Positions 1,019 to 30,802 of a stretch of DNA of 35,481 bases are shown here, in pieces. The translations under genes were made by a program, and so were the position numbers. The notes beneath the pieces are model-generated. The model saw nothing but the letters and a program-made list of their open reading frames with translations. It was not told where the DNA came from and made no database searches. The DNA lies in the IMG/VR virus record IMGVR_UViG_3300033068_001655, one strand, 5' to 3'. The stretch is from a virus. Taxonomy: Duplodnaviria; Heunggongvirae; Uroviricota; Caudoviricetes. Position 1 is the first letter of the stretch. The number at the start of each line of letters is the position of its first letter.

Positions 1019-1474
1019 TTATTTACGACAATATGTTTCAGTTTGACTATGGCAATTCGGACACAAAATTCTAAGATTTAATAACCTATTATCCATATTA
1101 TTACCATTTATATGATCTAAGTGCATTACAATTGGTTTACTATTCCAATCAGTTAGTTCACATATTTCACATTTGTTCTCTTTTAATTTTGCAGAGAATA
1201 ATTTTTCTTTTAATCTACCATTATTTGTGTAGGTAGAATTTTCTATTAAAATTTCCTCAAGAGAACAAGTCTTACCAAAATTTCTATATCTGGTTCCACT
1301 ATTCCATCCTTGTCCTGTAAAGTGTGAGGTGTCAATTTCTAATAATTTAAAATACTTTTTTAGTGTTTTATAATTACCACCAACTGGTCTCATTTCTAAT
1401 TTTCTACAGACTTCTGCAACGGATAGTGATTCTTTTACTATCGGTTCTAATGTTTCTTTATTATACTTACTCAT
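1019..1474 (-). CDS. HNH homing endonuclease inside the Leu/Arg tRNA operon
   Basis: CEIC...HLDHINGNNMDNRLLNLRILCPNCH motif. Confidence 0.88.
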   Translation of the reverse strand: MSKYNKETLEPIVKESLSVAEVCRKLEMRPVGGNYKTLKKYFKLLEIDTSHFTGQGWNSGTRYRNFGKTCSLEEILIENSTYTNNGRLKEKLFSAKLKENKCEICELTDWNSKPIVMHLDHINGNNMDNRLLNLRILCPNCHSQTETYCRK

Positions 1475-28537: not shown

Positions 28538-28598
28538 ATTTACATATTTATTTTATGTATATATTAAAGTGGAGAGTTTTCCTATCGAACTATATTCG

Positions 28599-28673
28599 TG
28601 GACACAGGGGGAGTCGAACCCACTCATGAAACCTTCCTTGCAAAGGAAGTAGTCTGCCGTTGACTTCTGGCCC
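28599..28673 (-). tRNA. tRNA-Ala(UGC), imperfect acceptor/T stems
   Basis: CTTCC-TTTGCAA-GGAAG arm; G3:U70, A73. Confidence 0.8.
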
Positions 28674-28683
28674 ATTTTTTTTG

Positions 28684-28757
28684 TGGAAAATACCGGGATC
28701 GAACCGGTGACCTCTTATCTGCCAGACAAGCGCTCTAACCATCTGAGCTAATTCCCC
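28684..28757 (-). tRNA. tRNA-Ala(GGC)
   Basis: CTTGT-CTGGCAG-ATAAG arm; G3:U70. Confidence 0.93.
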
Positions 28758-28837
28758 ATTATAATTAAAGTGGTGTATAAAAATTTACATCTAACGTCTT
28801 AGATATAGAGATTTCTATAACTTAAACCACTTATCTG

Positions 28838-28909
28838 AGCGAAAAACGGGGGTTGAACCCGCGACCCCCACCTTGGCAAGGTGGTGCTCTACCACTGAGC
28901 TATTTTCGC
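28838..28909 (-). tRNA. tRNA-Gly(GCC)
   Basis: CCACC-TTGCCAA-GGTGG arm; U73. Confidence 0.96.
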
Positions 28910-28956
28910 CTATTGGAGCCGGACCCTGGGACTAACAGGGAGTCCTCCGGCATGTG

Positions 28957-29029
28957 TGCAGGAGAAGGGAGTCGAACCCTCGTCTGAGCATTGGAAGTGC
29001 CCTATATTTAGCCGTTATACGACTCCTGC
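28957..29029 (-). tRNA. tRNA-Gly(UCC)
   Basis: GGGCA-CTTCCAA-TGCTC arm; A73. Confidence 0.92.
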
Positions 29030-29038
29030 AATTTATTG

Positions 29039-29126
29039 AGCGAGTGACAGGATTCGAACCTGCGACGTGAACCTCATCTGACTGATTTGGAAGACCAGTG
29101 CCATCGACCAACTAGGCGACACTCGC
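29039..29126 (-). tRNA. tRNA-Gly(UCC) with 18-nt variable region
   Basis: CTGGT-CTTCCAA-ATCAG arm; T arm identical to tRNA-Thr at 12-93. Confidence 0.87.
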
Positions 29127-29135
29127 ATATTTTTG

Positions 29136-29216
29136 TAGGCAAGATGGGATTCGAACCCACGTTTTCAAGTTACCGCTACAGGTATAGAATGTATAAGATT
29201 CCACTGCTACTTGCCT
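29136..29216 (-). tRNA. Rearranged tRNA-like RNA, anticodon UAU (Ile-AUA), 81 nt
   Basis: AGGCAAG/CTTGCCT acceptor, GGAAT-CTTATAC-ATTCT arm, D-loop-like AGCGGTA 3' of it, intact T arm. Confidence 0.68.
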
Positions 29217-29222
29217 ATGTTG

Positions 29223-29297
29223 TAGTCTATACGGGATTCGAACCCGTGTCTTACCCGTGAAAGGGGCACGTCCTAGACCTGACTAGACGAATAGACC
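29223..29297 (-). tRNA. tRNA-Glu(UUC)
   Basis: TGCCC-CTTTCAC-GGGTA arm. Confidence 0.93.
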
Positions 29298-29305
29298 ATT
29301 TTTTG

Positions 29306-29379
29306 TACTCTTGACGGGAATCGAACCCGCATTTACATCAGCTTGAGAAGCTGGAGTCCTACCGTTAGACGACAAGAGC
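29306..29379 (-). tRNA. tRNA-Glu(CUC)
   Basis: CAGC-TTCTCAA-GCTG arm. Confidence 0.9.
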
Positions 29380-29388
29380 ATTTTTTTG

Positions 29389-29456
29389 TGGGATGCGAGA
29401 GACTCGAACTCTCCTGCTAGGGTTTTACAGACCCGGCTATCACCATAATCCATCCC
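29389..29456 (-). tRNA. Compact atypical tRNA-Tyr(GUA), 68 nt
   Basis: GGGT-CTGTAAA-ACCC arm, miniature D arm TAT-GGTG-ATA, short variable loop. Confidence 0.65.
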
Positions 29457-29467
29457 GATTATATTTG

Positions 29468-29540
29468 TAGTGTATGTCGGATTCGAACCGACGTCCTCCG
29501 CTTTGAAAAAGCGTAATCCTTACCGCTAGACGAATACACC
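29468..29540 (-). tRNA. tRNA-Glu(UUC)
   Basis: CGCT-TTTTCAA-AGCG arm. Confidence 0.9.
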
Positions 29541-29548
29541 GTATTTTG

Positions 29549-29630
29549 TGGGCAGAGAGGGATTCGAACCCCCGAACTCGAAGAGAACAGATTTACAGTC
29601 TGCCAGCTTTAACCACTTGCATATCTACCC
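29549..29630 (-). tRNA. tRNA-Tyr(GUA)
   Basis: GCAGA-CTGTAAA-TCTGT arm, class II. Confidence 0.95.
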
Positions 29631-29640
29631 ATTATATTTG

Positions 29641-29712
29641 TACTAGTGACGGGACTCGAACCCGCATCTCCCGGTTTGAAAAACCAGTTTCCTGCCATTA
29701 GAAGACACTAGC
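29641..29712 (-). tRNA. tRNA-Glu(UUC)
   Basis: CTGGT-TTTTCAA-ACCGG arm. Confidence 0.88.
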
Positions 29713-29732
29713 ATATTTAATTTTAATTCAAT

Positions 29733-29771
29733 AAAAAAAACCCAATCTGATTTTTAAGTCAGATTGGGTTT
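29733..29771 (-). terminator. Intrinsic terminator/attenuator of the Glu/Tyr/Ile/Gly/Ala operon
   Basis: AAACCCAATCTGA-CTTAAAAA-TCAGATTGGGTTT plus U run; ends 20 nt before tRNA-Glu. Confidence 0.88.
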
Positions 29772-29797
29772 GTTATATAATAATGTGCTTTAACTCA

Positions 29798-29899
29798 TTA
29801 CTTTATAGACATAACGCTACTGACCGATGGTATTCTATACCCCGCTTCATATCCGCCTATGGCTTCTATAGCTATTGTTATGTTAGTAATTGTTGTCAT
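29798..29899 (-). CDS. Putative attenuator leader peptide 3 (33 aa, MTTITNITIAIEAIGGYEAGYRIPSVSSVMSIK)
   Basis: Hand-translated. Codons 9-21 encode only Ile(ATA), Ala, Glu, Gly and Tyr; lies between a promoter and the terminator. Confidence 0.8.
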   Translation of the reverse strand: MTTITNITIAIEAIGGYEAGYRIPSVSSVMSIK

Positions 29900-29968
29900 T
29901 TTTTCTATTTTTTAAATTGTTGTTTTTAATTCTTCTAGTCATTTTTAATGACTCTCGTTCTTCGAGTA

Positions 29969-29999
29969 CAAAGATACGATAAGTTTTTTAACTACCAAA
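29969..29999 (-). promoter_or_regulatory. Bacteroidota-type promoter (TTTG-N19-TATCTTTG) for leader 3
   Basis: -33 element at 29996-29999 and -7 element at 29969-29976. Confidence 0.78.
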
Positions 30000-30026
30000 T
30001 CTTTTTTTAATTTTTTTTATTCTTAG

Positions 30027-30099
30027 TAGCGGGAGAAGGACTCGAACCTCCGACCTCAAGGTTATGAGCCTTGCGAGCTGCCTACTGCTCTATCCCGCG
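30027..30099 (-). tRNA. Initiator-type tRNA-Met(CAU)
   Basis: C1:U72 mismatch; CAAGG-CTCATAA-CCTTG arm. Confidence 0.92.
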
Positions 30100-30113
30100 A
30101 TATATTTTCTTAG

Positions 30114-30184
30114 TAGCGTACTGTGGATTCGAACCACCCCGTAGACCTTATGAGAGTCCCATGCAACCTTTACACTTTAACGCG
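30114..30184 (-). tRNA. Second initiator-like tRNA-Met(CAU), degenerate acceptor
   Basis: C1:U72; GGACT-CTCATAA-GGTCT arm; mismatches at 6:67 and 7:66. Confidence 0.72.
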
Positions 30185-30229
30185 ATATGTGTTTTATAGT
30201 TGTATATATTAAAAAGTTTATCTCTCTTT

Positions 30230-30802
30230 TCAATTTTTTTCAACTTTTTTCATTATTTTTTTAATTTCTTCTTTAGATTTCTCTAAATCAACATTTTCTA
30301 TTACAAAATCTGCTAATTTAGCTTTATCTTCATCAGACCATTGACTTCTTATTCTTTTAAGAACTTCTTCCTTAGTAGTGTTATCTCTACTAATAACTCT
30401 TTCAACTCTTACATCTTCTGGTGCAGTAACTAAAATTGTATAATCACAATCTTTATAAGCACCACTTTCAAATAAAATTGCCGCTTCTTTAACTACAATG
30501 TCATATTGTTTTGACCAGTTGATAAAGTGTTGTCTTACTTTTGGATGAATAATCTCGTTTAACTTTTTAAGATTACTCTCATTTCCGAATACAAAAGTAG
30601 CTAACTTTTTTCTATCTACCAAATTATTTTCGATAATTTCTTCACCAAAAGTTATTCTTAATTCATTTACTACTTTTGGTGTATCAAGTAATTTCTTAGC
30701 TTCATCATCAGCAATATAAATAGGATAACCCAAAGATTCAATATACTTTGTGATTGTTGTCTTACCAGACCCAATACCACCAGTTATACCTACTATTTTC
30801 AT
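30230..30802 (-). CDS. coaE: Dephospho-CoA kinase
   Basis: VGITGGIGSGKTT, IADDEAK, VDRKKLA, IIHPKV, EAAILFE and ADFVIEN motifs. Confidence 0.95.
   Translation of the reverse strand: MKIVGITGGIGSGKTTITKYIESLGYPIYIADDEAKKLLDTPKVVNELRITFGEEIIENNLVDRKKLATFVFGNESNLKKLNEIIHPKVRQHFINWSKQYDIVVKEAAILFESGAYKDCDYTILVTAPEDVRVERVISRDNTTKEEVLKRIRSQWSDEDKAKLADFVIENVDLEKSKEEIKKIMKKVEKN

Follow-up and report, generated by a model that had tools for sequence, protein, structure and literature searches.

Among the minus-strand genes of a viral DNA stretch in the IMG/VR collection, record IMGVR_UViG_3300033068_001655 (Duplodnaviria; Heunggongvirae; Uroviricota; Caudoviricetes), lies an operon of 12 tRNA genes that is preceded by a 33-codon open reading frame (ORF) and an intrinsic terminator. 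We propose that these upstream elements form a ribosome-mediated leader-peptide attenuator, which would control the phage operon by sensing the supply of the very tRNAs that it encodes. Judging from the sequence evidence, we give this reading a probability of roughly three in four. The parts of the unit and their order, the agreement and co-evolution of leader codons with the array, a coding constraint on the leader, and an antiterminator that recurs throughout the family of related units are all discernible in the sequences.

The whole stretch of 35,481 nucleotides, called the window in what follows, has a G+C content of about 27%, and nearly all of its genes lie on the minus strand. Two more units of the same build are found on that strand within positions 1-2100, headed by the leaders that we term A and B. 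The closest public relative of the window is LR745206, an uncultured megaphage of 634,780 bp that has been treated along with other genomes of more than 630 kb (PMC9723777). Homologous units of related huge phages were gathered from IMG/VR (two motif scans), from metagenome contigs (one scan) and from LR745206. An automatic pipeline that required a terminator no more than 150 nt ahead of a tRNA, and an ATG-initiated ORF ending just upstream of that terminator, returned 99 distinct leaders. The permutation of leaders against arrays uses the 37 units that dereplication left from these three sources, with the junk calls of the pipeline kept in. The close homologues of the window's leader comprise 12 sequences in its lineage, 10 of which were aligned (alignment A1).

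Leader codons and the tRNA array

Read along the minus strand, the unit consists of a promoter-like site, an A-rich 5' untranslated region (UTR), the 33-codon ORF, a 26-nt AU-rich spacer, the terminator and the 12 tRNA genes. The ORF (29798-29899) starts with an ATG at 29899 and ends with a TAA at 29800-29798, behind which an in-frame TGA follows. Within it, codons 9-21 (29837-29875) form a regulatory run. A first-pass annotation, made from the letters alone, had noted that these codons spell only Ile(AUA), Ala, Glu, Gly and Tyr, and reading them from 29875 to 29837 gives an exact match: Ile(AUA), Ala and Gly three times each, Glu and Tyr twice each. Every codon of the run can be decoded by some tRNA of the array. 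The 12 tRNAs can decode 23.9% of the codons in the long ORFs of the window, and a run of at least 13 decodable codons in 32 has a probability of 1.3e-7.

The array itself extends over 28599-29712, where ARAGORN finds nine tRNAs with default settings; two more (29136-29216 and 28599-28673) exceed the gathering score of Rfam. With a relaxed threshold, ARAGORN lists exactly 12: four Glu, two Tyr, one Ile(UAU), three Gly and two Ala. This list is identical to the content claimed beforehand, namely these isotypes, a single UAU anticodon and nothing else, and no further gene was found within 28599-29712. Running down the minus strand, ARAGORN and Rfam agree on tRNA-Glu(UUC) at 29640-29712, tRNA-Tyr(GUA) at 29548-29630 and tRNA-Glu(UUC) at 29467-29540. 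Then follows a weak tRNA-Tyr(GUA) at 29387-29458, called by relaxed ARAGORN only, with an Rfam score of 22.1 bits that is under the gathering score. Both programs again report tRNA-Glu(CUC) at 29305-29379 and tRNA-Glu(UUC) at 29222-29297, and behind these lies the atypical 82-nt tRNA-Ile(UAU) at 29135-29216 (Rfam 32.8 bits; anticodon tat in relaxed ARAGORN). The two programs also share tRNA-Gly(UCC) at 29038-29126 (89 nt) and at 28956-29029, tRNA-Gly(GCC) at 28837-28909 and tRNA-Ala(GGC) at 28683-28757. The last gene, tRNA-Ala(UGC) at 28599-28673, is a weak call from relaxed ARAGORN and from Rfam, where it scores 29.2 bits against a gathering score of 29. The non-tRNA stretches of the array are a G+C-rich hairpin of 46 nt between two Gly tRNAs (28910-28955) and a 79-nt spacer (28758-28836). 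The 89-nt tRNA-Gly(UCC) and the 82-nt tRNA-Ile(UAU), the latter with its low Rfam score, seem to bear extra arms or insertions.

Does the correspondence between leader and array extend beyond this unit? A permutation of leader codons against array isotypes, which had been suggested as a check, answers clearly: 354 leader codons can be read by the unit's own array, whereas shuffling the pairs of leader and array yields 163.8 +/- 17.6 (z 10.8; 0 of 200,000 permutations; 37 units). Taken one by one, 19 of the 20 amino acids are significantly more frequent in the leaders of arrays that have the matching tRNA. A chance match of leader codons to the array is thereby excluded statistically. The agreement reaches down to synonymous codons, with 84 readable codons where 66.6 are expected from synonymous usage (z 3.3). 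Leaders of arrays with only Ile(UAU) write isoleucine as ATA 13 times, ATT twice and ATC once; those of arrays with Ile(GAU) use ATT four times and ATA once.

Individual relatives illustrate how far the spelling follows the genes behind it. The leader segment QQYQQQQ precedes two tRNA-Gln, SSSSSRSSR precedes Arg(ACG) and Ser tRNAs, KHKHF.K..KWF precedes Lys, His, Phe and Trp tRNAs, and PQIQDQDQP precedes Gln, Pro and Asp tRNAs. One relative with T, N, K, M, V, A, G and R in its leader carries exactly those eight isotypes behind it.

The pattern of variation indicates that the leader ORF is under coding constraint. The ORF is retained in the 12 homologues, and among the 10 aligned ones all five variable sites within codons 8-21 are third positions with synonymous changes (GCT/GCA, ATA/ATC, GCC/GCG/GCA, GGA/GGG and GAA/GAG). 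Two of these 10 sequences differ by an in-frame 6-nt indel that leaves exactly two codons missing. Codon 22, just past the run, is hypervariable (AGA, AAA, ACA, ATT or AAC, encoding R, K, T, I or N) and forms the loop of a hairpin over codons 19-25 (hairpin A, 29825-29844), whose eight pairs are all invariant across the homologues. Hairpin A is possibly a pause hairpin. The leaders of the family (L001-L115) have conserved ends, ..T-I-x-N-I.. at the N-terminus and ..V-M-stop at the C-terminus, whose coding RNA segments are complementary; the conservation of these peptide ends may reflect an RNA helix rather than a peptide function.

Leaders also appear to have fused and split together with their arrays. 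In LR745206 and many contigs, the tRNAs found here in one array are spread over two units in succession. One has a Tyr/Glu-rich leader ahead of Tyr/Glu tRNAs, the other an Ile/Ala/Gly-rich leader with its own terminator ahead of Ile(UAU), Gly and Ala tRNAs. The 12 sequences of the window's lineage lack this second, internal unit; one uninterrupted array follows a lone leader, which has all five residue types between an N- and C-terminus of the Tyr/Glu type. Two differently spelled leaders (..IEAIGYAYEAGS.. and ..IEAIGYEGGAYS..) likewise head merged Tyr/Glu/Ile/Gly/Ala arrays. The five-input sensing put forward in the first-pass annotation is backed by this recurrence, since the same five residues are combined before merged arrays in leaders of at least three distinct sequence families. 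By sequence comparison, the five-input composition arose or was kept in at least three leader families, which would be hard to explain unless leader composition were a selected property. LR745206 further contains a single leader with the residue sets of the window's leaders A and B, which heads one merged array.

Terminator and alternative folds

The terminator (29730-29771) had been described as a 13-bp stem, and folding bears this out: 13 pairs, five of them G-C, enclose an 8-nt loop and are followed by U8 (-18.4 kcal/mol, z -5.8). It is conserved in all homologues. The first tRNA-Glu begins at 29712, 17 nt past the end of the U-run at 29730. No promoter was found between the terminator and this tRNA, and the 17-nt gap leaves no room for a separate one. 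Terminators directly before tRNA arrays share a uniform shape, AAACCC...GGGTTTTTT.

An antiterminator is recognizable at the level of the family. Immediately past the regulatory codons, the ORF contains a segment whose sequence complements the 5' arm of the unit's own terminator (mean z -2.25 against dinucleotide shuffles; p < 0.05 in 15 of 25 units). In this 25-unit set, the duplex energy of leaders with their own arms is -309.9 kcal/mol, compared with -208.5 +/- 11.6 kcal/mol when they are paired with the arms of other units; in a larger set the summed energies are -453 and -316 +/- 14 kcal/mol (z -10). The strand lies inside the ORF in all 27 of 27 units, at a median of 9 nt past the regulatory block. 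Such a position fits a stalled ribosome that exposes the strand and a ribosome at the stop codon that covers it. Units A and B have clear 7-bp antiterminators of -11.2 and -10.0 kcal/mol, with p about 0.01 or less.

For the window's unit, two antiterminator candidates had been named, and they fared differently. The combination CGGAT/ATCTG plus GGGT/ACCC is the best simple duplex (-7.4 kcal/mol) and falls away, as it does not exceed shuffled sequences (z -0.28); the GGGGUAU that it would use is better explained as an arm of hairpin A. The other candidate, GGTCAG/CTGACT, is supported by homology. Here GGUCAG (codons 25-27, 29820-29825) pairs with CUGACU (29757-29762) in the fold of the nascent RNA. 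When the 3' arm of the terminator is left out, a helix between GUCAG (codons 26-27) and CUGAC encloses an AU-rich hairpin (29772-29815), which runs across the stop codon and makes up the interior of the alternative structure. The segment reaching from GGUCAG as far as the terminator loop folds with -15.1 kcal/mol (z -3.4), compared with -18.4 kcal/mol for the terminator. The structure is kept with a modelled ribosome at codons 10-21 and lost with the ribosome at the stop.

The GUCAG helix starts four codons past the last regulatory codon (codon 21), and four codons is about the reach of the leading edge of a ribosome. In nine of 11 homologues the helix has 6 bp (GUCAGA). Diverged Tyr/Glu leaders show the homologous helix changing together with the arm: GTCAGACT occurs with AGTCTGAC, TGTCAGAT with ATCTGACA, and GTAGACTG with CAGTCTAC. 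Counting the terminator-arm bases that are paired in minimum-free-energy folds of the nascent RNA gave 6.6 versus 5.2, a measure too noisy to use.

A further pairing is predicted for the untranslated leader. Folded in full (-42.6 kcal/mol, z -4.5), its conserved N-terminal module (region 1, codons 4-8, 29877-29890) pairs around the stop codon, where its partner is the 5' half of the AU-rich hairpin. An RNAalifold consensus of 10 sequences pairs columns 10-23 with 85-103 and keeps all pairs, with three one-sided changes and no compensatory one. Family-wide, this pairing has a mean z of -1.4 against shuffles (n = 35).

Proposed mechanism and competing explanations

How could these parts work together? 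In the mechanism that we propose, the host-type promoter would fire and a ribosome would translate the 33-codon leader. With plentiful aminoacyl-tRNAs for AUA, GCN, GAR, GGN and UAY, the ribosome would reach the stop codon and melt both the GUCAG helix and the AU-rich hairpin; the 13-bp/U8 terminator would then form and the tRNA genes would not be transcribed. Should any one of the tRNAs be scarce, the ribosome would stall in codons 9-21 with its footprint ending about four codons further on, just before GGUCAG. This segment could then pair with CUGAC of the terminator 5' arm, and RNA polymerase would continue into the tRNA genes. Without any ribosome, the predicted partner of the stop-codon region is the N-terminal module, and the terminator would again be free to form. 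The outcome would be a negative feedback with OR logic over five codon families that acts on exactly the tRNAs encoded. Ribosome stalling as the signal, the regulatory direction and the role of the window's weak helix are the elements of this scheme that we infer.

Several observations count against the attenuator. The antiterminator is, in our folding models, the weakest part of the window's unit. Complementarity between its leader and its terminator arm is no better than shuffled (z -0.28) and ranks 13th of 25 against the arms of other units. The GUCAG/CUGAC helix has 5 bp in the window (AGT for AGA) and, of the 13-nt arm, takes up just the portion next to the loop; its bases are invariant in the close homologues, so that no covariation can be demonstrated there. 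In some sister units, the gap between the last regulatory codons and the antiterminator strand is -1 to 5 nt, so a ribosome stalled on these codons would mask the strand. Three of the 12 tRNA calls are weak or atypical: Tyr (29387-29458), Ile(UAU) (29135-29216) and Ala(UGC) (28599-28673). Beyond the sequence, an extra tRNA would be of no help when the real shortage is one of amino acid, and the coupling of transcription and translation in the presumed Bacteroidota host is an assumption.

A switch that responds to infection timing would make less of the leader. An antitermination protein encoded by the phage, or a modified RNA polymerase, in the style of lambda N/Q would overcome the terminator at a set stage of infection, with the leader ORF at most a secondary input. 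The strong, uniform terminators directly before tRNA arrays (AAACCC...GGGTTTTTT) would suit such a factor, as would a phage-type TAATATATA box before sister leaders A and B and before leaderless Met tRNAs, and the weak antiterminator of the window's unit points the same way. However, timing leaves unexplained why leader codons mirror the array (z 10.8), why the leader is constrained as coding sequence and why a segment inside the ORF covaries with its own terminator arm (z -10); nor does Rfam recognize a nut- or put-like element in the region. We regard this explanation as unlikely in place of attenuation, and factor-dependent timing as a possible additional layer.

Two other explanations dispense with the ribosome as sensor altogether. 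The codon run could bind the anticodons of (uncharged) tRNAs in the manner of a T-box specifier and remodel the leader directly, an idea that draws on the match between codons and array anticodons. In 28560-30230, however, no known leader family, T-box (RF00230) or riboswitch is matched by Rfam at gathering score or E <= 1, and the codons are always in frame with ATG and stop, with an in-frame indel and variation in third positions only. Thirteen adjacent 'specifiers' would also have to act without a structured scaffold, and the geometry relative to a ribosome footprint suits translation, which makes direct sensing very improbable. Even less credible is the view that the small ORF encodes a functional micro-protein or ends an upstream transcription unit, the terminator being an ordinary insulator and the tRNA match a coincidence. 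ORFs of about 30 codons and terminators are indeed common in AT-rich phage DNA, but coincidence faces the probability of 1.3e-7 for the window's unit and the 0 of 200,000 permutations for the family, the peptide sequence varies freely while its composition follows the array, and the 17 nt behind the terminator hold no promoter for the tRNAs. Leader-peptide attenuation is the reading that we prefer over all three.

Sister units, known systems and surroundings

The units headed by leaders A and B share with the window's 12-tRNA unit the promoter, the N-terminal module, the terminator shape and the logic; the 12-tRNA unit has the broadest input set of the three and the weakest antiterminator. Leader A (ATG at about 246) is rich in Thr, Asn, Ile and Val and precedes a tRNA-Thr, with an array that runs off the window. 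Leader B (ATG at about 1997) reads Leu five times and then Arg-Arg; behind it, ARAGORN calls one Arg(UCU) tRNA, and there are six Leu tRNAs. Array B has another tRNA-like stretch at about 930-1015, maybe Arg(UCU), that was seen by eye only. The same array contains an ORF of 151 amino acids (1019-1474, minus strand) with a TAATATATA box in front, no Pfam match and an HNH-like His/Cys/Asn motif, by which it probably encodes a homing endonuclease. Small ORFs likewise occur in the arrays of LR745206.

LR745206 carries units of the same build as those of the window, and one of them extends the scheme to another kind of gene. At 45377-47899 of LR745206.1 (L002), a leader with Asn-Asn-Arg-Asn-Arg and its own terminator precede an asparaginyl-tRNA synthetase (AsnRS) gene that scores above both NCBIfam cut-offs. 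The unit has an obvious antiterminator overlapping the stop codon, and the ORF after AsnRS gives a weak match to arginyl-tRNA synthetase (39 bits against a 262-bit cut-off). From its sequence, the leader module would also control at least one synthetase gene.

The attenuators known from trpL, hisL, leuL, thrL, ilvL/ivbL and pheL, for which a theory has been given by Elf and Ehrenberg (2005, PMC1183508), provide the closest framework. As in these, a short, probably translated leader rich in regulatory codons is followed by an intrinsic terminator before the structural genes, the terminator 5' arm has a candidate alternative pairing, and several amino acids would be sensed jointly, as in thr and ilv. 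The predicted pairing of region 1 with the stop region would act like the classical 1:2 pairing, in which an upstream segment pairs with the 3' part of the ORF when no ribosome is present. Unlike the classical cases, the present unit is phage-borne and its targets are tRNA genes rather than biosynthetic enzymes, with a signal that would be the supply of the operon's own products at the codon level (AUA with tRNA-Ile UAU). The number of inputs is five in the window's unit and up to about eight in relatives, and the phage leaders share a modular N-terminus and are rewritten as arrays fuse and split.

The pheM-pheST operon of E. coli, which encodes an aminoacyl-tRNA synthetase, is regulated by a leader peptide. 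It has in common with the proposed phage system the control of a translation-apparatus gene through cognate codons, and the Asn/Arg leader before AsnRS in LR745206 is a direct analogue with respect to the Asn input; the targets of the window's unit differ in being tRNA genes, and many of them. T-box riboswitches are similar in that the tRNA status of a specific codon governs the choice between terminator and antiterminator before translation-related genes. In contrast to the window's unit, they contact tRNA directly, by means of Stem I and the T-box sequence, and work without translation. A possible precedent in E. coli itself, Phe-rich attenuator-like leaders at the tRNA-Phe genes pheV and pheU, was dropped: MG1655 shows only a plain promoter right before each of these tRNAs.

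The textbook view is that tRNA genes are controlled at the promoter, by growth rate and the stringent response, and we know of no description of a feedback from decoding onto tRNA transcription. A full-text literature search, with most subscription journals outside its coverage, returned no description of leader-peptide control of tRNA genes. The class of mechanism, leader-peptide attenuation, is known; its application to tRNA genes is new to our knowledge. When 185,579 species genomes were scanned for the pattern of leader and terminator, the phage module turned up in none of them, and the single match is a classical Leu leader. This match (L116; 5579-5711 of JASDWX010000016.1, a metagenome-assembled genome of Alteromonadaceae) combines a Leu-Leu-Leu leader with a terminator. 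The ORF behind it has a leuA-like N-terminus, judged by eye only. The N-terminus of the L116 leader, M-T-T-I-F-N-I, resembles that of the phage module, perhaps by chance or convergence.

Taken more broadly, huge phages of Bacteroidota type probably run a programmable, codon-resolved homeostat of their own tRNA supply. It would be built from modular leaders, one per tRNA operon and for at least one synthetase operon, in which the variable middle is rewritten to list the codons served and which fuse and split with the arrays. If true, such a homeostat would let replacement tRNAs rise exactly when their host counterparts for those codons run low, for instance through host shut-off or tRNA-cleaving defences, and would account for the dosing of tRNAs in phages that carry 50 or more. 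Whether phage tRNAs compensate for codon usage or replace host tRNAs lost to shut-off and defence would also become testable. The leaders would then amount to a natural collection of about 100 multi-input attenuators of diverse sequence, with a specificity readable from sequence, which could serve synthetic biology and studies of tRNA limitation in vivo. As an example of a regulatory sequence that tracks gene content, leader-array co-evolution is unusually clean.

Upstream of the window's leader, a regular-expression scan locates the promoter-like site at 29969-29999 on the minus strand, with TTTG at -33, a 19-nt spacer and TAtcTTTG at -7. It is of the Bacteroidota type, and by the consensus of that group we take it to be a sigma-A promoter. 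The TTTG and TAnnTTTG bases do not vary in the 10 homologues, and the identical motif also precedes leaders A and B. In the 5' UTR, a small hairpin (29937-29953) lies inside an insertion of about 30 nt that alignment A1 shows only in the window and in one homologue, L014. Its arms are AGTCAT/ATGACT in the window and AGTCAC/GTGACT in L014, a two-sided change by which the 6-bp pairing is kept. The insertion introduces an out-of-frame ATG. Directly upstream of the unit lie two tRNA-Met(CAU) genes (30026-30211, minus strand) that have a TAATATATA box without a leader ORF or terminator, and transcripts from this pair would also enter the leader at 29798-29899.

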